Assembly: GCA_036229005.1 (NCBI GenBank)
Contig: JAZAMN010000032.1
Coordinates: 25,661 to 89,660 of the forward strand
DNA: 64,000 nucleotides
Direction of reading: 5' to 3'
Source: Myxococcota bacterium
GTDB lineage: Bacteria; Myxococcota_A; UBA796; CAJQPC01
The notes below the pieces were generated by a model. It was given only the letters and a program-made list of their open reading frames with translations, had not been told where the DNA came from and ran no database searches. This document shows, piece after piece, positions 5,665 through 56,408 of the stretch (position 1 is the stretch's first letter; every line of letters starts with the position of its first letter). Position numbers and translations under genes: made by a program.

Positions 5665-6430
5665 GGCCTTCTACCTGCCGGTGGGTGCGGGCTTCTCGCC
5701 CACGCCCTCGACCACGGGCCCCTGGTCCCCGGAGCACCAGCACGGCGGCCCCCCCTGCGCGCTGCTGACCGGCGCCCTGCAACGGGCGGTGCCCCCCGCG
5801 TTCCGCCTGGCCCGCGTCACCGCGAACTTCCTGCGGGCGGTCCCCCTGGCCGAGCTGCGGGTGGAGACCCACTGCATCAAGGCCGGGCGCAGCACCCAGC
5901 GCTGGCGGGCGGTCCTGCACGCCGACCGGCCCGTCCTGGAGATGGAGGGCCTCTTTGTGCGGGCCAGCGATGGGATGGCCGACCTGGACAGCACGGCTGG
6001 ACCGGAGTGGGCCGCGCCGGAGTCGGTGGCGCCCTTCACTTTCCCCTTCTTCCAGACGGAGCACGGCTACCACCGGGCGGTGGACCTGCGCTTCTGGGAG
6101 CAGCCCTGGGGCCCGCCCCGGGTGCGGGTCTGGGCCCGCCCGCTGCAACCCTTGGTCGCCGGCTGGGAAGACAGCCCCGAGCAGCGCGTGGTCCTGCTCA
6201 CCGACGCCCAATCGGGCATGGCCCCGCCCCTGGACCCCCTGCGCTTCAACTACGCCAACCCCGACCTGAGCCTGGCCTTCACCCGGCGTCCCCAGGGCGA
6301 GTGGGTGGGGCTGGACATCCAGGCCCAGGTGGGCCCCGAGGGCATCGGGCTGGCCCACAGCCGCCTGCGGGATCTGCGGGGTGCGGTGGGGGTCGCGGAG
6401 CAGAGCTTGATCGTGCGGGCGCGCAAGTAG
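5654..6430 (+). CDS. Acyl-CoA thioesterase family protein (double hotdog)
   Basis: GPWSPEHQHGGPP, LARVTANFLRAVP, NPDLSL...GEWVGL, G.A.QSL. Confidence 0.85.
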   Translation: MRTEAFYLPVGAGFSPTPSTTGPWSPEHQHGGPPCALLTGALQRAVPPAFRLARVTANFLRAVPLAELRVETHCIKAGRSTQRWRAVLHADRPVLEMEGLFVRASDGMADLDSTAGPEWAAPESVAPFTFPFFQTEHGYHRAVDLRFWEQPWGPPRVRVWARPLQPLVAGWEDSPEQRVVLLTDAQSGMAPPLDPLRFNYANPDLSLAFTRRPQGEWVGLDIQAQVGPEGIGLAHSRLRDLRGAVGVAEQSLIVRARK

Positions 6431-6688
6431 GGGCGAACGCATCGGGCGGCGCGCAAGTCCGGGCGAACGCAACGGGGCGGCGCGCAAGTCCGGGCGAACG
6501 CAACAAACGCCTCCCTCTCCGGCCCCATCGAGCCCGGCGATGTTGCGTTCAGAGCCGCTTGCGCAGGCCGTCGTTGCGTTCACAGCCACTTACGCAGTGC
6601 GGTGTTGCGTTCACAGCCACTTACGCAGTGCGGTGTTGCGTTCACAGCCCCTTGCGCAGCGCTGTGTTGCGTTCAGGGCCGCTTGCGC
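6418..6688. repeat. Element copy 1: head-to-head arrays of ~31-bp units (3 left + 5 right) around a short spacer
   Basis: Left-arm GAACGC at 6435/6465/6496. Right-arm GTTGCGTTCA-N6-CTTRCGC at 6542/6573/6604/6635/6666. Confidence 0.9.
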
Positions 6689-7496
6689 CGACTCGCCAGC
6701 GCACACTCCGGCTCCAGGGCCCCGGCCCCGAGGGAATTCCCGGAAAGCGCGGGTCTCCAGCCAGCCTGGCGACCAGCCGCAGAGCCTCGGGCGGGGCGCT
6801 CGACGTCCGCGACACGCTCCCCCGGTGTACGCCCACAAAGTCCGCGACCTGTACCGGGCTGACCTCTGCCAGCGCCAGCGCGGACTGGATGAACAGGGTG
6901 CGCGACGGCCCGCGCTGGGTCTGCTCCACCATGGGTGCGCGCAGCGCCTCGGACACCGCGGCCTGGATCTCCAGCAGGGTCGGCACCCCCTGGGACACCG
7001 GGAGCAGGGTGCCCTGCTGGTCCACGTGGGCGTCGGCGCTGGTGTAGCGGTGCAGGGCTTCGGGCTCTCCCACTCGGCGACGCACCGGACGCAGAGTCAG
7101 CCCCACCGCGTCCCGGTAGGTGGACCAGGGCCAGCACAGCGGGTCCTGGACCATGCCGGCGCGGCAGGGGTTCAGGTGGATGTAGCGCCCTTCCCGCCGC
7201 CGCTTCTGGGCATCCGCTGCCCAGCGGGGAGCGGGCACGGGCTCCAGCACCCGGCCACGCAGCCCCCGCCGGTGGTTCAGGCTGCGGGTGTGGCCGCTCA
7301 GCGCGCGCGCCAGCGGCAGCCGCAGGTCGCGCTCGTGCTGGACGTGGACGTGGTTGGGCATCAGGCAGATGGCCTCCGCTCCGGGGAGCGCGCGGGTGAG
7401 TCGAGCCCAGAGAGCAGCGGCCTCCTCCCAAGTCTCGAAGAGCAGGCCTTGGCGGGTTCTTGCGACGTGGTGGTACATGCTGGGGAGCGTCTGCAC
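6642..7496 (-). mobile_element. REP-associated tyrosine transposase (RAYT, Y1 HUH) with C-terminal HTH; start uncertain (7496 GTG or 7478 ATG)
   Basis: YHHVAR, CLMPNHVH (HUH), RYIHLNPCRAGMV.DP..WPWSTY (catalytic Tyr region), C-terminal VQVADFVGVHRGSVSR helix-turn-helix. Confidence 0.85.
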
Positions 7497-7545
7497 AGCC
7501 CGTGCCGCCTCCAGAATCCGCGTGTGGTCGGCCTCCGCACCCAAA

Positions 7546-7567
7546 GGGTGTCGACAATCCGACACCC
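7546..7567. repeat. Perfect 8-bp-stem hairpin upstream of the RAYT (REP-like)
   Basis: GGGTGTCG-acaatc-CGACACCC. Confidence 0.55.
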
Positions 7568-7587
7568 CCCGTCGGCCCTTCGACACC

Positions 7588-9427: not shown

Positions 9428-9682
9428 ACGCAACAAGCCGGCGCGCAAGTCCCGCCGAACGCGACAAGCCGGCGCGCAAGTCTCGGTGAACGCAACAAGC
9501 CGGCGCGCAAGTCCGGGCGAACGCGACAACTCCCCCGTTCCACGGCCCCAGCACGCCCGGTGCTGTTGCGTTCAGACCCGCTTGCGCAGCCCGCCGTTGC
9601 GTTCAGACCCACTTGCGCAGCCCGCTGTTGCGTTCACACCCACTTGCGCAAGCCGCCGTTGCGTTCAGACCCGTTCGCGCGC
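9410..9682. repeat. Element copy 2: head-to-head arrays of 31-bp units (4 left + 4 right)
   Basis: GAACGC at 9426/9457/9488/9519 and GTTGCGTTCA at 9565/9596/9627/9658. The central spacer resembles that of copy 1. Confidence 0.9.
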
Positions 9683-12955: not shown

Positions 12956-13810
12956 TCACCGGGGGACGCGGCTCCAGTCGACAAAGCCGCGCCCCTTTGC
13001 ATCCGGCTGACATCGCGGGCAGAAGAAGGCGTCGTGGCCCCGCACGCCCGCCGCACGAATCGCCGTCCCGCACACCGGACAGGGCTCCCCCTTGCGGTTG
13101 CGCACTGCCAGAAAGTCCCGGAGCTTCTCATCCAAGGCCGGCTTCCTACGCCGAATCTCCGACCGAGCATCCCCCAGCACCTTGACGATGGCGGCGTGCA
13201 GCGCGGTCACCTGCTCCGGGCTCAGCTCCGAGACCCGGGCCTTGGGGTGGATGCCCGCCGCGAACAGCACCTCGTCCGCGTAGGCGTTGCCCATCGCGTC
13301 CAGCTTGGACTTGTCCATCAAGAAGAGCTTGACCTGCCGGCGCTCCTTGGCCGCCAGGGCCTGCAGCTTGTCCACCGTGAACGCCTTGCCCAGCACGTTG
13401 ACGCCGATCTTGGCGAAGCCCGGGATCTCCTTGAGCTGCTCCCGCGGGCACAGGTAGACCTTGCCCATCTGCACGTCGTCCCGGTAGCGCAGCTCCAGCG
13501 CCTCAAAGCCCACCCTCAGCGCCACGTCCTTGCGGATCCGCCCCTTGGTCGGCGCCTCCAGCAGCGCAAAGCGCCCGGCCAGCATCGGCGAGACCACCAC
13601 GTCCACCGGCCCATCCAGCCCAAAGTGCACAAAGTGCGCCCGCCGCTTGATCGCCTGGACCGTGGCGCCCTCCAGCAGCGCCTGGGGCGTGCCCGGCGCC
13701 ATCTGCCGCAGCACCACCGGGTTGCGCAGGTCCACCAACCCCACCCGCTGCCCCTTGAGGGCCCGCTGCAGCTTGGGGACCACGTACTCCAGATCGGGAC
13801 GCTCAGGCAT
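12956..13810 (-). CDS. Fpg/Nei-family DNA glycosylase
   Basis: N-terminal MPE, H2TH GNAYADEVLF.AGIHP, zinc finger CPVC...CPRCQP. Confidence 0.92.
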   Translation of the reverse strand: MPERPDLEYVVPKLQRALKGQRVGLVDLRNPVVLRQMAPGTPQALLEGATVQAIKRRAHFVHFGLDGPVDVVVSPMLAGRFALLEAPTKGRIRKDVALRVGFEALELRYRDDVQMGKVYLCPREQLKEIPGFAKIGVNVLGKAFTVDKLQALAAKERRQVKLFLMDKSKLDAMGNAYADEVLFAAGIHPKARVSELSPEQVTALHAAIVKVLGDARSEIRRRKPALDEKLRDFLAVRNRKGEPCPVCGTAIRAAGVRGHDAFFCPRCQPDAKGRGFVDWSRVPR

Positions 13811-13853: not shown

Positions 13854-16586
13854 ATGAGCGACTTCTCCACCGCCCTGCAGGAGGGCAGAGACCTCATCGC
13901 CGCGGCCCGCCGGGGGGAGCTCCCCGGTGTGCACGCGCGGAGTGAGGAGATCCAGGAGCTGTCCCGGCAGCTCGACACCGGCGCCAGCGTGCTGCTGCTG
14001 GGCGAGGACGGCGTGGGCAAGACCGCCCTGATCCACGGCCTGGCGCACCACTGGCGCGACGGCGACGCCAGCCTGATCGAGCTGAGCACCAGCGCGGTCA
14101 TGGCCGGCACCAAGTACCTGGGCGAGTGGCAGTCCAAGGTCAAGGCCCTGGTCGAGCAGGCCCAGGCCGCCAGCGCCGTGCTCTACATCCCCGACATCTG
14201 GAACCTCCCGAACGTCGGTCGCACCGACAAGAACGACAACAACCTGCTGGACGCCCTGCGGCCCTACCTCCAGTCGGGGCGCCTGCAGCTCCTGGCCGAG
14301 GTCAGCCCCGGCCTGCTCCGCCAGATGGAGCGCACCCCCGGCTTCGTCCCCCTCTTCCGCAAGCAGCGCGTACACCCCATGGCCCCCGCCGCCGTGCGCG
14401 CCTGCGTCCAGCGCGAGTGCCAGGAGGCCGCCGTCGCCCTGGATGACGAAGGCCTGGACACCCTGCTCAGCCTGTCCTCGCGCTTCTCCAACCGTGCCCA
14501 GCCGGGTCCCGCGCTGGCCAGCTTGGGGGCGTTGATCCGACAAGTGGAGGCCGACCCCAGCCTCCCCTCCCCCCTGGGCCCACCCCAGGTCGAGCGCAGC
14601 TTCTCCGAGCTCTCCGGCCTGCCCATGTTCGTGGTCAGCCGCAGCGAGACCCGCTCCGCCCGCGACATCCGCGCCTTCTTCTCCGAGCGCATCGTCGGCC
14701 AGCAGGAGGCCATCGAGGCCGTCATCGAGTGTATCGCCCTGTTCAAGGCCGGCCTGCAGGACCCCGACAAGCCCATCGGCACCTTCTTGTTCGTGGGCCC
14801 CACCGGCGTCGGCAAGACCGAGCTGGCCCGCACCCTGGCGCGCTTCCTGTTCGGCAGCGAGAGCCGCCTGCTGCGCTTCGATCTCTCCGAGTTCAAGGAC
14901 TACCACTCCTTCGAGATGCTGGTCGGCAGCGCCCGCGACCCCAGCCGCCCCGCCGCCCTGGTCGATCCCATCCGCGCCCAGCCCTTCCAGGTCGTGCTCT
15001 TTGACGAGCTCGAGAAGGCCCACCCCAACGTCTGGGACCTCCTGCTCGGCCTGCTGGATGAAGGCCGCATCACGCCCCCCGGTGGCCGCACCGTCGACTG
15101 CCGGAACACCATCGTCATCGCGACCTCCAACGTGGGCGCCCAGGACAGCCAGCGCACCAGCGTCGGCTTCGACGGCAAGAGCGAGCGCACCGCCCGCCGG
15201 GACATCGAGCGCGCTCTGGAGCAGCACTTCCGCCCCGAGTTCCTCAATCGTTTCCAGCACCTGGCCATCTTCCACGCCCTCACCCCCGAGCAGGTCCTCC
15301 AGGTCGCCCGCTGGGAGCTGCGCCGCGTCGTGGACCGCGAAGGCATCGCCGCCCGCAACCTGGTCGTCGAGGTCGAAGACGAGGCCCTCCAGGTCATCGT
15401 CGACAAGGGCTTCGACCCCCGCTACGGCGCCCGCGGCCTCAAGCGCGAGATCCAGCGCCGCCTGGTGCTCCCCCTGGCCATGACCCTGATGGAGACCCAG
15501 GTCAGCCCCGGCAGCATCCTGCGCGTCCAGGCCCGCAACGACCGCCTGCAGGTGCGCGTCATCGAGACCCGCGAGGCCCGGCTCCAGCGCCGCCGTAGGG
15601 AGCCTCCCCGTCTTCCGGAGGGAGGGCGCCTGGATCTTCCGGAGCTCCGCAGCAGAACACAAGCCCTCAGTCCGCGCATCACCGCTCTGTCATCGGGTGT
15701 CGGCGAGGACACGCTGCTCGACTCCCAAGCGGAGCTGGAGCACGCCCGCGCGCAGCCTGGGTTCTGGAACGACCCGGAGCAGGCCGCCCGCGTGATGCGC
15801 GATCTGGACCAGATCAACCTCAGCCTGGACCGCATCGAGCGCCTGCGCCTGAGCATCGAGGAGCTTCAGGCCGACGCCGCCCAGGCCAGCGCTACGGCGC
15901 TCTCCCGCATGGCCGAGCGGCTGCTGCGCCTGGAGGACCGTCTGCTGCTGGCCGAGCGCCAGATGCTGCGCATGGGCCCCAGCGGCACCTGGGACGCCCT
16001 GGTCCACATCGAGCCGCAGGGCAAGGAGGGCTGGCGCGTCCGAGACCTGCTGGTCAAGCTCTACGAGGGCTGGGCGGCGGACCGCCACTCCCTGTCCAGC
16101 CGCCTGCTGCTGGAGCCCCGCACGAAACGGCAGCCCGCTCTGCTCGCCGTCGAGGGCACCTGGGCGCACGGCTGGCTGGCCCACGAGTCCGGCCTGCACC
16201 GCCTCCGCCTGGAGAAGGAGTCGGTCATGGCGCGCGTGCGCGTGGTCCCCTGGACCGACGCGGTGGCCGAGCCCGAGTTCCTGCGACACAAGGCCCTGTC
16301 CAAGGAGACCGGCGCCTACGGCGGCACCCTGCGCTCGCGGGTGGAGCTCAAGGGCGGGCTGGTGCTCCAGAGCGGCGGGACCCTGGCCGACAACCGCGCC
16401 CTGGCCGCGGAGCTCTACGGCTCCTGGCTCCAGGCCCCCGAGCCCCTGGACGAGGTCGTGCGCCGCTACCGCCTGGAGCCCATGCAGCTCAAGGACCACG
16501 CCACCGGTGTGGACACCCAGCGCAAGGACGCTCTGGGCGCCCGCTTCTTCCACACCCTGCTGGAGCAGCGGGTGGACCTGCTCTGA
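13854..16586 (+). CDS. Clp/Hsp100-like double AAA+ ATPase fused to a degenerate RF2-like peptide release factor module
   Basis: GEDGVGKT; FLFVGPTGVGKTELA, LFDELEKAH, FRPEFLNR, YGARGLKR. C-terminus: PGFWNDPEQA, LY.GWA, G..AHGWL..ESGLHRL, VRRY.L.P..LKDHATG. Confidence 0.8.
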   Translation: MSDFSTALQEGRDLIAAARRGELPGVHARSEEIQELSRQLDTGASVLLLGEDGVGKTALIHGLAHHWRDGDASLIELSTSAVMAGTKYLGEWQSKVKALVEQAQAASAVLYIPDIWNLPNVGRTDKNDNNLLDALRPYLQSGRLQLLAEVSPGLLRQMERTPGFVPLFRKQRVHPMAPAAVRACVQRECQEAAVALDDEGLDTLLSLSSRFSNRAQPGPALASLGALIRQVEADPSLPSPLGPPQVERSFSELSGLPMFVVSRSETRSARDIRAFFSERIVGQQEAIEAVIECIALFKAGLQDPDKPIGTFLFVGPTGVGKTELARTLARFLFGSESRLLRFDLSEFKDYHSFEMLVGSARDPSRPAALVDPIRAQPFQVVLFDELEKAHPNVWDLLLGLLDEGRITPPGGRTVDCRNTIVIATSNVGAQDSQRTSVGFDGKSERTARRDIERALEQHFRPEFLNRFQHLAIFHALTPEQVLQVARWELRRVVDREGIAARNLVVEVEDEALQVIVDKGFDPRYGARGLKREIQRRLVLPLAMTLMETQVSPGSILRVQARNDRLQVRVIETREARLQRRRREPPRLPEGGRLDLPELRSRTQALSPRITALSSGVGEDTLLDSQAELEHARAQPGFWNDPEQAARVMRDLDQINLSLDRIERLRLSIEELQADAAQASATALSRMAERLLRLEDRLLLAERQMLRMGPSGTWDALVHIEPQGKEGWRVRDLLVKLYEGWAADRHSLSSRLLLEPRTKRQPALLAVEGTWAHGWLAHESGLHRLRLEKESVMARVRVVPWTDAVAEPEFLRHKALSKETGAYGGTLRSRVELKGGLVLQSGGTLADNRALAAELYGSWLQAPEPLDEVVRRYRLEPMQLKDHATGVDTQRKDALGARFFHTLLEQRVDLL

Positions 16587-16595
16587 GGCCCGCCC

Positions 16596-17471
16596 CTACG
16601 CGGCGCGGACCTTCTCGCGGGCCTGCTCCAGCACCTCACGGCAGGCCTCGGCCTGGGCCTTGAGGGCGTCCCCGATGCGCTGGGTGACCAGCTCGACCAC
16701 CCGGCGGGCGGGCTCGGAGTCCTCGTCATCGGCGTGGATGCTGCGCAGGTCGGAGATGTCGATCTCCGCGCCGAAGGCGATCCCGATGGGGTGCTCGTCA
16801 GGCTCCAGCCAGTTCCAGAGGAACTCCTGCCACAGGTCGTTGGTCAGCCCGGTCAGGAACACGGGCACGAGCTGGGAGTCGGGCGCGTCCAGCGCGACCT
16901 GGGAGGCCCCGGGCTTGAGGCGGTGGAGCGCGAAGGGATCCGCGTCCGGGTAGCGCCGCCCCTCTGGGTGGATGCCCACCACCGCGCCGGTCTCCTGGAG
17001 CTCATAGGCCAGGCGGTGCAGCGCGTAGCGGTTCCAGATGGCGCCGTCCCGGCTGCGCTTGATGGGCGGGAACATGGCCATGCCGGACATGAAGGTGTTC
17101 ACGCCCCAGCCCACCGGGCTGTCGTAGAAGAAGGTGCTGCGCACGGGGAACACCACATCACGCGGCAGGTCGGTCCAGTTGAACCAGGCGCAGGCCACGG
17201 TGAAGTAGTCAAAGAAGCTGCGGTGGTTGGCCACCAGCAGGATCCCCCGGCTGGGGTCCAGCTTCTCCAGGTGCTCCAGGCCGGTCACGTGGATGCGTCG
17301 CTTGCAGGTCAGCCAGGTCACCCCCACCAGCACGGTGGAGTTCCACGCGACCGCCGCCCAGCGGGCGTGACGGTGCACGCGGTCGGCGATCTGGAACCCC
17401 CAGCGCTCGGCGGGCGCGAGGCGGGCCAGTTGGCCGGCGCTCGGCTCCGGTGTCTTCTCGGTTGCGCTCAT
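16596..17471 (-). CDS. Lysophospholipid acyltransferase (PlsC-like)
   Basis: VANHRSFFD (HX4D), IHPEGRR. Confidence 0.88.
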   Translation of the reverse strand: MSATEKTPEPSAGQLARLAPAERWGFQIADRVHRHARWAAVAWNSTVLVGVTWLTCKRRIHVTGLEHLEKLDPSRGILLVANHRSFFDYFTVACAWFNWTDLPRDVVFPVRSTFFYDSPVGWGVNTFMSGMAMFPPIKRSRDGAIWNRYALHRLAYELQETGAVVGIHPEGRRYPDADPFALHRLKPGASQVALDAPDSQLVPVFLTGLTNDLWQEFLWNWLEPDEHPIGIAFGAEIDISDLRSIHADDEDSEPARRVVELVTQRIGDALKAQAEACREVLEQAREKVRAA

Positions 17472-50791: not shown

Positions 50792-51388
50792 TCACCGGGC
50801 GTCGGGCTGGTGCACCAGATCGTGCATCGCCACCACTGCCTCCTGGTCGTCCACAAAGTCCGTGAAGTCCAGCCACACCTCCGCCGCCGCGGTCCCCTGG
50901 TCCACCTCCCAGTCCAAGATCAGCGGCGGGTTCACAAAGAAGCCCGCCCCCTCCGGCCCGTACTCCCGCAGCCTGGCCTCCAGGTCGTCGTCGTGCTCCA
51001 GGGCCCCGATGCACTGCAGGTGCGCCCCCTGGTCCAGCACGCACGCGGCGTCCTCCGTCGGCTCCACCCCCTCGATGTCCCAGCGGCCCGCCAGCGGCAC
51101 GCGGTACTCCGGCCCCGGGCAGTCGTCTCCCTCCCAGGTGATCCGCGCCGGCATCTCCTCGCTGGTGGAGAGCAGCACAGAGATCTCTGAGAGGAGCTCA
51201 TCGGGGTTCTGGTTGAGGAAGGACTGTCGGCCCACCACAGAGTCCCTCAGCTCACCGAAAGACACCCCGTCCACCTGGTCATCCCAAGACATCGACTCCA
51301 CCGTCGAGGAACAGCTCAGCGCGGCCAGACCGGAGGGGTCAAAGGCGGGCTGCTCTGCGCAGCCGAGCAGGAGGGCTACCAGGACCAT
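50792..51388 (-). CDS. Paralogous lipoprotein, type A copy 1
   Basis: MVLVALLLGC; nearly identical to 53387-53983. Confidence 0.8.
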   Translation of the reverse strand: MVLVALLLGCAEQPAFDPSGLAALSCSSTVESMSWDDQVDGVSFGELRDSVVGRQSFLNQNPDELLSEISVLLSTSEEMPARITWEGDDCPGPEYRVPLAGRWDIEGVEPTEDAACVLDQGAHLQCIGALEHDDDLEARLREYGPEGAGFFVNPPLILDWEVDQGTAAAEVWLDFTDFVDDQEAVVAMHDLVHQPDAR

Positions 51389-51393
51389 GTTCC
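50801..51393. repeat. ~590-bp direct repeat, copy 1 (copy 2 at 53396-53988)
   Basis: Near-identical DNA with scattered substitutions. Confidence 0.9.
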
Positions 51394-51972
51394 AGCTACC
51401 CATACCGCCCCCCCCTTGTTTACGTCCTTCGTTCGAACGGTGACATCTAGATCAACCAAACCGGCGTCCTCATCAGCGGTGACCCAAAATCGGTAGTTGT
51501 ACCCCTCCTCTGGGCTCCCACCGAAGAGCTCAGGGTGCCAATACAGACTTCCTGAATCGGTGTTTGATTGGAGCCTCAACTCAGTGAGGCCATCCTCCTC
51601 CACGACGACACTCCAGTCGCTCTCTGAACCAGCTGAGACGGCCTGGATTCCGCCGTCCAGGGACTGTACCGACCCAAGCAGCGGCACCATCAGCTTTGGG
51701 CTCGGATCACAGTTCCCAGCCTCAACGATGCGCTCCACCTCAGCGACTGCATCCGACAGGAAGAGATCAAGCTGGAACAACTCGCCGACCCCAACGGGCG
51801 GCCGACGGTCCTCCGAGGTCCAGATGGGCTCGACGGTCCAGCTCCCCAGGTAGGGCGCCGCCCACTGGTCTGCTTCTTGACCAGCCCACTCCGCGTCCTC
51901 CAAAGGAACACGTTCCCAATCACACATCCCGTTGTTGGCACAACCAACGGCGGCTACGAACCAGACAAACAT
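51376..51972 (-). CDS. Paralogous lipoprotein, type B copy 1
   Basis: MFVWFVAAVGC; WAGQ..QWA.PYLGSW.VEP, QSLDG.IQAV. Confidence 0.8.
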   Translation of the reverse strand: MFVWFVAAVGCANNGMCDWERVPLEDAEWAGQEADQWAAPYLGSWTVEPIWTSEDRRPPVGVGELFQLDLFLSDAVAEVERIVEAGNCDPSPKLMVPLLGSVQSLDGGIQAVSAGSESDWSVVVEEDGLTELRLQSNTDSGSLYWHPELFGGSPEEGYNYRFWVTADEDAGLVDLDVTVRTKDVNKGGAVWVAGTWSW

Positions 51973-53277
51973 CTAGTAGCTCCAGAGGCCATCTGTGATG
52001 ACCGAGATCCACTCGCTGCGCCAATACGAGGCTCTCGCCCCTGCCGCAGTATTCCAAGGGGGATTGTTCGACGAGTGAACACCGACTACATATCGACGGC
52101 CGCCCTCGTCGCCTGGATCGTAGAAATAAGGCCCACCAGAATAGCCGTTACCATGAGTAACGTTGAGTCTCAGAGACTTTGTGTAGACAGTAGCAGCCTC
52201 CCCCTCCGCTAAGTGGAGCCGAGATCCCTCCATATACTCGGTGTTAGCCGATCGTTCTTCCCTCCAGTTGCTGATGCAGGAAGGATCGGAACGCCAGATG
52301 GTTGGATACCCCCCAAGGTACAGCTCCGAACTACGAATAGTCGCTGAGCTTACGCTGGAAAAGTACATCTTATTGTCCGACCCTCCGATAGCGTCTTCTA
52401 GCTCGATCAACACCCAGTCATGCTTGGCCGAAGGTTCATCGTCATTCACGCTCGGGTTGACATATTGGCCACTACCCAAGCTGCAGTCTGGGGTTGCATC
52501 TTCCCAATTCCCACGCGTACAGAACTTATACGAACTCGGCAAGCCCGCAAACGCCCCCGTGGAGTCGATAAAGCAATGGGCTGCTGAGAGCACGACATCT
52601 GAGCGAACAAGAACACCGCTACATCCTCCGTGCCAATACGTGTCGATCGCAACGATTGGATCAGTCTCGTACGTGTTCATCTCAGAGGTCACGATCACAT
52701 CCTCTTGCCCCCCTTGGTCCCATACATGATTTGTCGTTGTTGAGGACGTGCATGAGACTTGCGTGAATGACTCAAACTCGAACCAGCCGCCCTCGGTGTC
52801 CTCCACAGCGTCTTCAACCCCCGTATCCGGCTCCCCACTGTCCACTGCACCAGAAACCTGCTGGAAGGCCATCTCCTCCCCAAGCGCCATCAGGTCGTAC
52901 TGGGCAATCCCCCTATCCAACAGCGGCCGGTCCACGTCCACCACCTTCCACAGCCGCCCCTGAGCATCCACCTTGTGCATGCCGTAGAAGGGCTCATGCG
53001 TGCTCTGCCCATCGTCCCAGACCGGCTCGTCCCAAGGCTTGGGCTCCTTTGCGAAACGCGCAGCGCCGATGTGCTCCCAGGTCAGCGCACCGACCTTCTC
53101 ACGCTGGCCGATACCTTGGTCCGCCCCAGGCAGTGCGTACATCCGTTCCTGCCCTGTGTAGAGCAGGCTGGACGAATACCCTGAGCTGGACTCGTCTGGC
53201 TTGGTCGCACCAGACACCTCAGCGGCCTCATGGTGATTCACGCACGAGAAGAGAAGAGAAGAGAAGAGAATGCTCAT
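51973..53277 (-). CDS. Trypsin-like (V8/glutamyl endopeptidase-type) serine protease lipoprotein
   Basis: MSILFSSLLFSC; CSGVLV...LSAAHC, HDW.LIEL, GYSGGP catalytic triad; lower GC. Confidence 0.85.
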   Translation of the reverse strand: MSILFSSLLFSCVNHHEAAEVSGATKPDESSSGYSSSLLYTGQERMYALPGADQGIGQREKVGALTWEHIGAARFAKEPKPWDEPVWDDGQSTHEPFYGMHKVDAQGRLWKVVDVDRPLLDRGIAQYDLMALGEEMAFQQVSGAVDSGEPDTGVEDAVEDTEGGWFEFESFTQVSCTSSTTTNHVWDQGGQEDVIVTSEMNTYETDPIVAIDTYWHGGCSGVLVRSDVVLSAAHCFIDSTGAFAGLPSSYKFCTRGNWEDATPDCSLGSGQYVNPSVNDDEPSAKHDWVLIELEDAIGGSDNKMYFSSVSSATIRSSELYLGGYPTIWRSDPSCISNWREERSANTEYMEGSRLHLAEGEAATVYTKSLRLNVTHGNGYSGGPYFYDPGDEGGRRYVVGVHSSNNPPWNTAAGARASYWRSEWISVITDGLWSY

Positions 53278-53386
53278 TCGATGCCCCCAGGGGATTTGCC
53301 GAAGTTCAGCAGTGAACGTAGATCCCCGCCACCGGACGGTACCATCCCGCGAACTCTCGAGTGTATGTAGATAAACGTACTTCTCA

Positions 53387-53983
53387 TCACCTACCGTCGG
53401 GCTGGTGCACCAGATCGTGCATCGCCACCACCGCCTCCTGGTCGTCCACAAAGTCCGTGAAGTCCAGCCACACCTCCGCCGCCGCGGTCCCCTGGTCGAC
53501 CTCCCAGTCCAAGATCAGCGGCGGGTTCACAAAGAAGCCCGCCCCCTCCGGCCCGTACTCCCGCAGCTTGGCCTCCAGGTCCTCGTCGTGCTCCAGGGCC
53601 CCGACGCACTGCAGGTGCGCCCCCTGATCCAGCACGCACGCCGCATCCCTCGTGGGCTCCACCCCCTCGATGTCCCAGCGACCCGCCAGCGGCACGCGGT
53701 ACTCCGGCCCCGGGCAGTCGTCTCCCTCCCAGGTGATCCGCGCCGGCATGTCCTCGCTGGTGGAGAGCAGCACAGAGATCTCTGAGAGGAGCTCATCGGG
53801 GTTTTGGTTGAGGAAGGACTGTCTGCCCACCACCGAATCCCTCAGCTCACCGAAAGACACACCGTCCACCTGCTCATCCCAAGACATCGACTCCACCGTC
53901 GAGGAACAGCTCAGCGCGGCCAGACCGGAGGGGTCGAAGGCGGGCTGCTCTGCGCAGCCGAGCAGGAGGGCTACCAGGACCAT
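53387..53983 (-). CDS. Paralogous lipoprotein, type A copy 2
   Basis: Nearly identical to type A copy 1. Confidence 0.8.
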   Translation of the reverse strand: MVLVALLLGCAEQPAFDPSGLAALSCSSTVESMSWDEQVDGVSFGELRDSVVGRQSFLNQNPDELLSEISVLLSTSEDMPARITWEGDDCPGPEYRVPLAGRWDIEGVEPTRDAACVLDQGAHLQCVGALEHDEDLEAKLREYGPEGAGFFVNPPLILDWEVDQGTAAAEVWLDFTDFVDDQEAVVAMHDLVHQPDGR

Positions 53984-53988
53984 GTTCC
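53396..53988. repeat. ~590-bp direct repeat, copy 2
   Basis: Matches 50801-51393. Confidence 0.9.
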
Positions 53989-54558
53989 GTCGCTCCAGAC
54001 CATCCTGGCCGAGTTCTCCCGCGTGACGTCCATGGCCAGGCTGCCGCCGCCATCGTGGGCCCAGAGATGGAAGCGGTGGTTGGCCCCATCGCCCTCGCCT
54101 TCAAAGAGCCCGCTCCAGGCCAGGCTCCCCGACTCGGTCTGGGAGAGCAGCGCGACCCCGTCCTCACCGTCCTCACGTACCTGCACCACCCAGTCTTGCT
54201 CCGAGCCGCTGTGGACCGCCTGGATGTTGCCGTCCAATGATTGAAGGGAGCCGGTGACGGGGACCCGCAGCGTCGGGGTGGGGTCGCAACTGCCCCCAAC
54301 GGCGATCTGCTTCACCATCGCCGGCTCGCTGGACAGCGCCAGGTCGATCTGGAACAACTCGCCGACCCCAACGGGCGGCCGAAGGTCCTCCGAGGTCCAG
54401 GTGGGCTCAATCGTCCAGCTCCCCAGGTAGGGCTCCGCCCACTGCTCCGGAGTCTGCCCCGCCCAAGTGTCCTCGGAGAAGGCGACCTGCTCCCACTCGC
54501 ACATGCCGGTGTGCAGGGTGTAGGTCTCGCAGCCCACCAGAAGAATCAACAGCGGCAT
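53971..54558 (-). CDS. Paralogous lipoprotein, type B copy 2
   Basis: MPLLILLVGC; same type B motifs; GAGGAGG RBS. Confidence 0.8.
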   Translation of the reverse strand: MPLLILLVGCETYTLHTGMCEWEQVAFSEDTWAGQTPEQWAEPYLGSWTIEPTWTSEDLRPPVGVGELFQIDLALSSEPAMVKQIAVGGSCDPTPTLRVPVTGSLQSLDGNIQAVHSGSEQDWVVQVREDGEDGVALLSQTESGSLAWSGLFEGEGDGANHRFHLWAHDGGGSLAMDVTRENSARMVWSDGTWSW

Positions 54559-54625
54559 GCGCCCCCCTCCTCAGCTCGAACACCGAGCTTATGGTGGGTC
54601 GGGGCTCTGAGCCACAAGCAGCTAA

Positions 54626-55212
54626 CTACCACGCCCACTTACCCGGCCCCCAGATCACACTGCCCTTGTGGATCTCCTTGTTCCGGATGCTCCGCTGGAG
54701 AGAGAGCCGTCCCCCGAGCTCGTCCCCGCGCACAAAGACCTGGTAGCTGACCCCATCGGCCGGGTCCCCCTCAAAGAGCGAATCCTCCCAGCGCAGGCTC
54801 CCCGCATCGGTCCGAGCGGTCAGCTCCAGCCAGGCCAGCCCATCCTCCCGCACGACCACTGCCCAGTCCGACTCCGAGCCGCTGTGTACCGCCTGGATTC
54901 CGCCATCCAGCGACTGCACCGACCCAGCCAGGAGCACCCGCAGCTTGGGGGTCTGATCGCAGTAGCCGGCCTCCTTGATCTGCTCGACCGCAGGCTGCCC
55001 GCCACGCGACAGGTCGATCTGGAAGACCTCGGCCACCCCCACCGGAGGTTGCTCCTCGTGCCAGGTCCAGGTCGGCTCGACGGTCCAGCTTCCCAGGTAG
55101 GCCTCCGCCCACTGCTCCGGCGTCTGCCCCGCCCAGCTCTCCCCCGCGAAGGGCACCTGCTCCCATGCGCACAGGTTGTAGTCGACGCACCCGCCCAGAG
55201 CAGAAGCCACAC
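54626..55212 (-). pseudogene. Paralogous lipoprotein, type B copy 3, with a probable 1-nt frameshift in the signal peptide
   Basis: GTG-start MWLLLWAG is out of frame with CVDYNLC...; one extra G at 55190-55192 would restore MWLLLWAGC. Confidence 0.55.
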
Positions 55213-55215
55213 CCG

Positions 55216-55821
55216 CTAGTCCTGCACCTGATGCACCCAGTCGGACATCAGCACGTCCACGCGGCGCTCCTCGTCGTCGTACCAGCTCTCCCCGGACTCC
55301 ACAAAGGTCAGCCACAGCTCCACGCTGGCCGTGCCCTGGTCGAGCTCCCAGTCCAGCACCATCGGCGGGTCAGGCACAAAGCCGGCGTCCTCCGGTCCGT
55401 AGGCCTGCAGCTCGGCCTCCAACGCCTCGTCGGGCTTGATCTCCCCGATGCACTGCAGGTGCGCCCCCTGGTCCAGCATGCACAGCGCATCCGAGTTCGC
55501 CGCCACCCCCGCGATCTCCCAGCGACCCGACAGCGGCACCCGGTATTCCGGCTCCGGGCAGCCCTCGCCCTCCCAGGTGATGCGCGCCGGCGTGTCCTCG
55601 CTGGTGGAGAGCAGCACAGAGATCTCCGTGAAGAGCTCATTGGGGGTCTGGTTGAGGAAGGACTGTCGGCCCACCACAGAGTCCCTCAGCTCACCGAAAG
55701 ACACCCCGTCCACCTGGTCATCCCAGGAAACGGCCTCCACCGTCGAGGAACAGCTCAGCGCCGCCAGCCCCGCCGGGTCAAACTCCGGGGACTGCGCGCA
55801 GCCCAGCAGCAGGATCACCAT
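55216..55821 (-). CDS. Paralogous lipoprotein, type A copy 3 (more diverged)
   Basis: MVILLLGC; LAALSCSSTVE..SWDDQVDGVSFGELRDSVVGRQSF. Confidence 0.8.
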   Translation of the reverse strand: MVILLLGCAQSPEFDPAGLAALSCSSTVEAVSWDDQVDGVSFGELRDSVVGRQSFLNQTPNELFTEISVLLSTSEDTPARITWEGEGCPEPEYRVPLSGRWEIAGVAANSDALCMLDQGAHLQCIGEIKPDEALEAELQAYGPEDAGFVPDPPMVLDWELDQGTASVELWLTFVESGESWYDDEERRVDVLMSDWVHQVQD

Positions 55822-56408
55822 GCCCACAGGCCCTCCCCCCAGACGCTGGAGGCGCTGTTTCGCTCGGGGGTGCGCTCGACGTGGTCCAGGGCGAAGCTGC
55901 CCTCCTGCTCGGTCGCGGACACAAAGAAGCGCCAGTTGTGCCCTTGCTCCGGGTCGCCCTCGAACAGGGTGTCGTTCCACGCCAGGCTGCCGGTCTCGGT
56001 CTCGGCGAGGATGGACAGCTTCGCGTCACCGTCCTCGGAGACCTCGAGGTACCAAGACTCCTCGGCGCCGCTGTGGACGGCTTGGATGCTGCCGTCCAGT
56101 GACTGGATCGAGCCGGAGAGCGGAATCCGGATCTTGTCGCGCGGATCGCACAACGAGCCGCTGACGTGCTCCCAGACCACCACCGGCTCCCCGCTGCGCG
56201 CCAGGTCGAGCTGGAAGCTCTCGGCGACCCCGGTGGCGGGCCGCAGCTCCTGGTCCATCCAGGCGGGCTCCACGACCCAGCTCCCCACATAGGGCGCCGC
56301 CCACTGCTCGGCGCTCTGACCGGCCCACTGGGCCTGGCCCAGCTCGGTGGTGTCGAACGCGCAGGTGTCCAGCTCATTGCACGCCAGACTCAGAAGCAGG
56401 ACCATCAC
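55815..56408 (-). CDS. Paralogous lipoprotein, type B copy 4
   Basis: MVLLLSLAC; WAGQSAEQWAAPYVGSW, QSLDGSIQAVHSG. Confidence 0.8.
   Translation of the reverse strand: MMVLLLSLACNELDTCAFDTTELGQAQWAGQSAEQWAAPYVGSWVVEPAWMDQELRPATGVAESFQLDLARSGEPVVVWEHVSGSLCDPRDKIRIPLSGSIQSLDGSIQAVHSGAEESWYLEVSEDGDAKLSILAETETGSLAWNDTLFEGDPEQGHNWRFFVSATEQEGSFALDHVERTPERNSASSVWGEGLWAW

Follow-up and report, generated by a model that had tools for sequence, protein, structure and literature searches.

RF2, the release factor (RF) encoded by prfB, can occupy ribosomes in a compact state in which its SPF motif is unengaged and its domain 1 lies at the L11 stalk; a long helix alpha7 and the switch loop allow its domain 3 to reach the peptidyl-transferase centre. 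Peptide release by ArfA-RF2 needs an intact GGQ motif, and the same dependence holds for ArfB, BrfA-RF2 and PrfH. Of the Clp ATPases, ClpA and ClpX are docked on ClpP by an IGL/IGF-type loop (PMC7707817, accessible sections). In E. coli ClpA, the loops of the first AAA module (D1) capture the substrate, and those of the second module (D2) are required for unfolding native substrates but dispensable for degrading unfolded ones (PMC8666677, accessible sections). Here we describe a gene that joins both kinds of protein, found at positions 13854 to 16586 of a 64,000-nucleotide stretch (hereafter the window) of contig JAZAMN010000032.1 from a Myxococcota bacterium, and encoding a Clp-type AAA+ motor followed by an RF2-like tail. 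The fusion is real and conserved, and it is a separate, multi-phylum branch of the Clp ATPases, i.e. an undescribed variant of known protein kinds. No published description of a Clp-RF2 fusion was found in the literature searched, and the word Clp is absent from the accessible main text of the release-factor survey PMC6514570.

Domain architecture

The features of the gene (window coordinates and strand) are the following:

13854..16586, +: whole gene, 910 amino acids (aa), ATG at 13854 and TGA at 16586, in the order Clp D1, D2, D2-small, linker, RF2-fold tail
13881..14633, +: AAA module D1, aa 10-260 (alignment to ClpC)
14106..14129, +: D1 pore loop GTKYLGEW of the KYR type (aligned to ClpC GTKYRGEF)
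14184..14201, +: degenerate D1 Walker B motif YIPDIW (ClpC alignment, column counts)
14661..15263, +: AAA module D2, aa 270-470 (Pfam AAA_2, E 1.5e-45)
14925..14960, +: D2 pore-loop position, where GSARDPSRPAAL replaces GAPPGYVGYDEGGQL and the aromatic residue is absent
15162..15170, +: VGF loop, aa 437-439, after sensor 1, at the position of the ClpP-docking IGL/IGF motif
15279..15527, +: D2-small domain with sensor 2 GARGLKR (Pfam ClpB_D2-small, E 2.5e-15)
15636..15974, +: RF2-like domain 1, aa 595-707 (predicted model)
15990..16256, +: RF2-like domain 2, aa 713-801 (alignments and predicted model)
16275..16433, +: RF2-like domain 3, aa 808-860 (alignments and predicted model)
16449..16583, +: RF2-like domain 4, aa 866-910 (RF2 alignment)

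A first-pass annotation of this DNA, made from the letters alone, had proposed a Clp-type unfoldase fused to a catalytically dead RF2-like factor, and the open reading frame (ORF) as well as every motif quoted in it were recovered (YIPDIW, GPTGVGKT, FDELEKAH, FWNDPEQA at 637-644, LYEGWA, GTWAHGWLAHESGLHRL, ARVRVVP and VRRYRLEPMQLKDHATG). Two tandem AAA+ modules plus D2-small are what defines a class I Clp/Hsp100 protein in the broad sense, and the motor matches ClpC, ClpB and ClpA in the PDB with E-values from 1e-63 to 1e-88. On the whole protein, Pfam finds AAA (46-140), AAA_2 (306-468), ClpB_D2-small (476-558) and PCRF (625-784); the PCRF match, which the annotation had suggested looking for, reaches 36.5 bits (E 5.8e-9, cut-off 24), and RF-1 is not among the best 25 of the 41 families for the 910-aa protein.

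Profile alignments and the spacing of the Walker A motifs indicate that N-domain and M-domain are both absent. As had been claimed for the N-domain, the alignment to the ClpA family TIGR02639 (NCBIfam) begins only at profile position 175 of 734 (protein residue 14), i.e. the helical N-domain of ClpA/ClpC is not present, and the start point is identical in all 17 of 17 full-length close relatives. From Walker A to Walker A there are 265 aa, which is ClpA-type (ClpC-like 337, ClpB-like about 400).

At the motor-tail junction (codons 571-630, window 15564-15745) the G+C content at third codon positions is 0.70-0.77, compared to 0.95 gene-wide; a dip to 0.80 or less occurs there in only 3 of 18 homologous genes.

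An RF2 fold without its functional motifs

The C-terminus parallels RF2 throughout, as was first noticed by eye. For the last 310 aa, prfB is the sole NCBIfam family found (58 bits, cut-off 370) and RF2 chains are matched in the PDB at E 3e-10, while the family tail profile aligns to RF2 over its full length (hhalign probability 99.9, E 1.4e-34); in a profile search of the PDB, RF2 is found at E 5e-36 and the best RF1 at E 4e-21. The four-domain RF fold is seen both in the profile alignments and in the predicted model and its structural comparisons, so the structure prediction that the annotation had called for bears it out. Domain 1 consists of four helices (21-42, 44-59, 67-102 and 106-133 of the modelled 336-aa piece) and carries the RF2-type FW motif at 637-638, the Trp being present in 35 of the 38 core relatives to which the column counts below refer. 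The core of domain 2 is retained (Y737, W740, E778, G780, H782), as are, in domain 4, VRRY and KD..TG, which correspond to RF2 IRSY and KDxRTG; R870 and D881 are invariant (38/38), and an added Arg871 is found in 36/38.

The motifs by which RF2 acts are gone, in line with what had been proposed for SPF and GGQ. In domain 2 the GGTEA of the alpha5 tip is missing and the SPF loop is deleted (8 aa), leaving a short turn in the predicted model; the tails of 162 fusions hold 6 SPF strings, all elsewhere, and those of 78 further fusions none. The GGQ motif reads T-G-A (16308-16316), i.e. T819-G820-A821, in the gap-free register of the PDB profile alignment, and although the hhalign register is shifted by a few residues around this site, GGQ occurs in neither. 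The annotation took this to be a replacement by GAYGG, but since Gly occupies the G820 column in 33 of the 38 relatives and Gln position 821 in 14, the loop is better seen as an eroded GGQ than as something unrelated; the model shows it as an ordered beta-hairpin. GGQ strings number 4 (off-position) in the 162 tails and 0 in the 78 others, with GGQ present in 11 of 11 RF2 controls. The long alpha7 and switch loop of RF2 are likewise lacking: helix alpha7 has 16 residues in the predicted model and is followed by an 18-aa deletion that includes the switch loop (relative to B. subtilis and E. coli RF2), and the His-to-RxY spacing is 88 aa in the tail versus 125 in RF2. The tail can almost certainly not release peptides.

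The separate prfB gene of the host (G000:C52:405475-406659, minus strand) has the usual CTT-TGA +1 frameshift site, of which the fused tail bears no trace.

A motor with an altered first ring

The annotated combination of a degenerate Walker B motif in D1 and an intact D2 is borne out by Pfam, by the ClpC alignment and by the column counts. D1 retains its Walker A motif (GEDGVGKT, with the Lys 92-100% conserved), whereas Walker B FIDE has become YIPD (YIPDIW, aa 111-116) and the arginine-finger segment ERRF reads VPLF in the ClpC alignment. Position 113 is T, S or P in 31/38 and position 114 Asp in 37/38 core relatives; DE is not among the common residues at the Walker B positions of these 38 proteins, which sets them apart from ClpA and ClpC. 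Judging from these residues, D1 is predicted to bind ATP without hydrolysing it. The pore-loop tyrosine of D1 is kept in 33/38; in the Myxococcales form this pore motif has disappeared too (0/71 by pattern match).

In D2, Walker A (GPTGVGKT, 315-322), Walker B (FDELEKAH, 383-390), sensor 1 and the arginine finger (FRPEFLNR) are all intact, and conservation of the catalytic positions is 93-100% in three protein groups (38, 14 and 113 members). The GYVG pore loop, however, is found in 0 of 50 tailed versus 79 of 80 ordinary Clp proteins. Given this loss and the results on the D2 loops of ClpA, the word unfoldase is doubtful and finds no support as the annotation used it; the data agree better with a motor that works with ClpP on unfolded chains. 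Just before the lost loop, Tyr350 (14901-14903) stands in place of the lysine in the 'EKH' segment of ClpB/ClpC; it is kept in 30/38 core and 79% of HEAT proteins, and may supply the D2 channel with an aromatic residue in place of the lost one.

At the sequence level the ClpP-docking loop of ClpA/ClpC is present. The VGF loop has Gly in 38/38 and Phe in 37/38 core proteins, and a GF or GL loop occurs in 45/50 tailed, 34/35 ClpC-like and 4/38 ClpB-like proteins, which points to a role in ClpP proteolysis. The retained xGF loop, the GYVG loss, the loss of the D1 arginine finger and the alpha7/switch-loop deletion had all been overlooked in the annotation.

Distribution and phylogeny

Neither the absence of relatives nor that of an RF2-like fold, which the annotation had named as grounds for giving up its proposal, was encountered. 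A search with the tail gave 18 proteins collinear with the query, and one of 50% cluster representatives 43 matches at E up to 1e-30. In the host class, 32 of 182 genomes are matched by the tail profile (among near-complete genomes 18 of 82; by genus 20 of 85), and in a phylum sample 23 of 301; within a genus the fusion mostly occurs throughout (4/4, 3/3, 3/3 and 2/2 genomes). The Atlas cluster of the fusion has 139 members, most commonly from Myxococcota.

Several sister forms exist. One with HEAT-repeat N-termini gave 117 matches, those named by taxon being Planctomycetota, and this fusion is present in at least 11 of 201 Planctomycetota genomes; another has TPR-like N-termini (judged by eye). 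A third, of 925-950 aa, is found in Myxococcus, Corallococcus and Stigmatella (80 matches), including Myxococcus xanthus, where by length it is probably MXAN_1484, which opens the family to genetic testing now. The M. xanthus genes MXAN_4823-4825 (1149, 1127 and 836 aa; PMC11423568, Table S1) are chloramphenicol-induced according to the accessible part of PMC6617876; if they carry the tail, they would belong to a different subfamily. In seven Clp fusions RF domain 3 is excised (P0282, P0283, P0356, P0357, P0359, P0361 and P0362, one of them named Solirubrobacteraceae). Some lineages have several paralogue types, and one genome (G047; loci L190 and L191) has two core fusion copies, one of which (P0018 type) has degenerate D2 catalytic motifs as well.

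In a quick tree of D2 (130 rows, midpoint root), the 50 tailed proteins lie on one side of a branch and 80 ordinary ClpA/B/C proteins on the other, with a Shimodaira-Hasegawa-like approximate likelihood ratio (SH-aLRT) support of 100; one ClpA-like row of the host sits on a long branch. The source databases name these proteins 'AAA family ATPase' or 'ClpC', and a few sisters 'ClpA/protein subunit release factor A or B'.

Genomic context

The gene is flanked on one side by an Fpg-like gene in divergent orientation (12956-13810) and on the other by an acyltransferase gene in convergent orientation (16596-17471); the contig is, by eye, ordinary chromosome. Since the host encodes its own RF1, RF2, RF3, ArfB, SmpB, ClpP, ClpA and ClpB, the fusion comes on top of these proteins. 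A Pfam scan of 35 neighbours showed a mixture of housekeeping genes. The phage search gave no convincing copy, the one weak match (24%, E 9e-5) being to MT838038.1 (2474-3118), an unannotated 5.8-kb phage record in which the tail match is probably an ordinary release-factor fragment; plasmids gave no match. With PADLOC 2.0.0, 5 of 5 proteins match via their AAA modules only, apart from one weak match in the TPR region of P0115, and the neighbours include no partner genes of PADLOC systems, i.e. the make-up of an anti-phage system was not found.

Among the sister forms, the 940-aa Myxococcaceae type lies directly upstream of RNase J and YajQ (DUF520) at 4 of 25 loci (L195, L196, L199 and L200, all close kin), where a RimO-like ORF (by eye) is also present, and at one locus only (L185, G268:C2) a HEAT-type fusion is located about 12 kb from an ordinary prfB. 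Elsewhere in the window, 50792-56408 (minus strand) holds six or seven alike short lipoprotein-like ORFs with a lowered G+C content of 0.60-0.68, some of them near-duplicates, one of which has no match in Pfam. Palindrome-like repeat blocks, visible in the ORF translations, occur at 6430-7586 and 9430-9660; the ORF at 6642-7586 (minus strand) beside them has no Pfam match, and we take it to resemble a transposase associated with repetitive extragenic palindromes.

Possible function

Tentatively, the fusion can be read as a ribosome-tethered, two-ring Clp feeder that passes already unfolded nascent chains into ClpP. The protein would, quite probably, form a hexamer docked on ClpP. Six compact, codon-blind RF2 mimics would then attach this hexamer to stalled ribosomes: docking of the tail on the ribosome is a plausible inference, and chances are about even that the tail is fixed in a shape like that of compact, pre-accommodation RF2 and binds the ribosomal factor site irrespective of the codon. 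It is domain 1, at the end of the RF2 fold, that is fused to the motor. The D1 loops would capture unfolded nascent chains with ATP hydrolysis by D2 as the source of power, and that unfolded chains are handled in this way, stable proteins being left folded, seems somewhat better than an even bet. That the substrates would be nascent chains on ribosomes that have stalled or been damaged is the least certain step; the whole would be an accessory pathway alongside transfer-messenger RNA (tmRNA)-SmpB and ArfB. A bolder version, which we consider rather doubtful, is that an ancient Clp branch captured RF2 as a ribosome-docking arm and became a one-protein bacterial counterpart of Vms1-Cdc48, in which stalled ribosomes are recognised by the locked, codon-blind mimic and their nascent chains are pulled off into ClpP by a motor remade to handle unfolded chains, with neither tmRNA nor alanine tags involved.

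A number of observations weigh against a ribosome-tethered feeder. All three known ribosome-reading elements (the alpha5 tip, SPF and the switch loop with Trp319) are lost, and conservation within the tail is lowest (26%) in domain 1, which would have to contact the L11 stalk. The tails carry no net charge (median 0.0 per 100 aa, compared to -4.9 for the acidic RF2), and because the invariant residues match the RF2 fold core (E195, G197, H199, R324, Y326 and D335) they may be structural only. With the tail attached at the rim of the ring that faces ClpP, a long distance would separate it from the D1 entry, and the exit tunnel is likewise remote from the factor site. The closed model may also reflect a bias of the predictor toward free RF structures. 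Even translocation is uncertain, since D1 still hydrolysed ATP in the ClpA loop experiment, whereas it looks dead here. The neighbourhood survey that the annotation had recommended gave no neighbour common beyond close kin among 41 loci (39 with the fusion), and no translation genes beside the core loci. A link to RqcH was not found either (11 of 32 carriers versus 51 of 150 others), and RNA reads cover the gene in 0 of 4 runs.

An alternative is that the RF2 fold now serves away from the ribosome, where it would bind proteins or regulate a ClpP-coupled ATPase as one of its arms, either as a built-in adaptor taking the place of the missing N-domain or as an inhibitor comparable to the middle domain of ClpB/ClpC. 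The loss of every ribosome-reading motif, the altered charge, an invariance limited to fold-core residues, the missing N- and M-domains, the HEAT or TPR-like N-termini added in sister forms and neighbours without relation to translation all agree with such an arm. However, the body of domain 1 and domains 2/4 is intact across several phyla instead of being eroded to a single binding surface, and the searches found no other RF2 fold that works away from RNA, which leaves this explanation unlikely.

Unlikely to a similar degree is that the tail does dock on ribosomes but that nascent chains are not the substrate: the motor would remodel or remove a ribosome-bound protein, or the A site would merely be blocked under stress, as by a dead Dom34/Pelota with an ATPase partner. 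The evidence from the fold is identical for this and for the nascent-chain feeder, a weak motor fits local remodelling, the distance to the exit tunnel need not be bridged, and non-catalytic release-factor paralogues are discussed in the accessible part of PMC6514570. Yet the xGF loop in 45/50 proteins suggests proteolysis, and neighbours that encode hibernation factors or ribosomal proteins were not found.

More improbable still is binding of a specific RNA (an mRNA end, tRNA or free rRNA), by which the ATPase-ClpP machine would be brought to an RNA-protein complex. The precedent is chloroplast PrfB3: this RF2 paralogue, which has neither SPF nor GGQ, binds the petB 3' untranslated region (PMC5897788, accessible part), and in the Atlas it ranks second among the feature neighbours (0.87, no more than a lead), but it is a stand-alone plant protein. 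Compared to RF2 the tails are less acidic, and they have the added Arg871 (36/38), although they are neutral and not basic, and apart from RNase J downstream of the Myxococcaceae form (4/25 loci, close kin) neither an RNA target nor a conserved neighbour is evident.

Very unlikely, finally, is the decoy option of the annotation, in which proteins that phages or competitors direct against RF2 are caught and delivered to ClpP: the patchy distribution (32/182 genomes), the TPR-like and HEAT N-termini of the sisters and the several paralogue types would suit it, but this is a single chromosomal gene with housekeeping neighbours, carried by whole genera (4/4, 3/3, 3/3, 2/2) and not scattered, with PADLOC matches limited to the AAA modules, one weak match in an unannotated phage record (24%, E 9e-5) and none in plasmids, and its RF2 surface, which a decoy should preserve, has diverged.

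Of the original interpretation, then, the conserved Clp-RF2 fusion with a dead tail stands, the unfoldase wording is unsupported and the phage decoy is disfavoured. If the tail binds ribosomes, bacteria would have a new route of quality control in translation, and for the first time a bacterial release-factor fold would be seen to serve as the targeting arm of a protease motor. Even without ribosome binding, it is a natural two-ring Clp protein with an apparently dead D1 and no gripping loop in D2, in which the division of labour in such motors can be tested.

Comparison with known systems

On its sequence features, the fusion is a class I Clp ATPase in the broad sense that falls outside ClpA, ClpB, ClpC and RF2. 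With ClpA and ClpC it shares the two AAA modules, D2-small, the KYR-type D1 pore loop, intact D2 catalysis motifs and the xGF loop, and with ClpA also the spacing without M-domain. It differs from them in the missing N-domain, the degenerate D1 Walker B and arginine finger, the absent GYVG, the 315-aa RF2-fold tail and its separate branch in the D2 tree, and its ClpA score is 300 bits (cut-off 993). Its highest NCBIfam score is to ClpB/Hsp104 (350 bits, via D2), still below the cut-off of 1232; unlike ClpB, it has no coiled-coil M-domain and does have the xGF loop, which is missing in 34/38 ClpB-like controls.

Compared to RF2 (PrfB; 1gqe, 5mdw, 6ost), the tail is without SPF, GGQ, GGTEA and Trp319, is about 18 aa shorter in alpha7 and switch loop, has a neutral charge, lies behind an ATPase and lacks the frameshift site. 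In PrfB3, too, an RF2 paralogue has remained functional after losing SPF and GGQ (PMC5897788, accessible part), although as a stand-alone plant protein on an mRNA end, with no ATPase. Dom34/Pelota and Vms1-Cdc48 resemble the proposed feeder in that rescue is performed by a release-factor paralogue, non-catalytic in Dom34 and with an AAA+ ATPase in Vms1 (PMC6514570, accessible part), but the eRF1 fold is unrelated and the polypeptides are separate, so this is an analogy only. ArfA/BrfA-RF2, ArfB and PrfH are RF2-related and rescue ribosomes independently of a stop codon, and the compact state of RF2 on ribosomes resembles the predicted model of the tail; none of them, in contrast to the fusion, has an ATPase.
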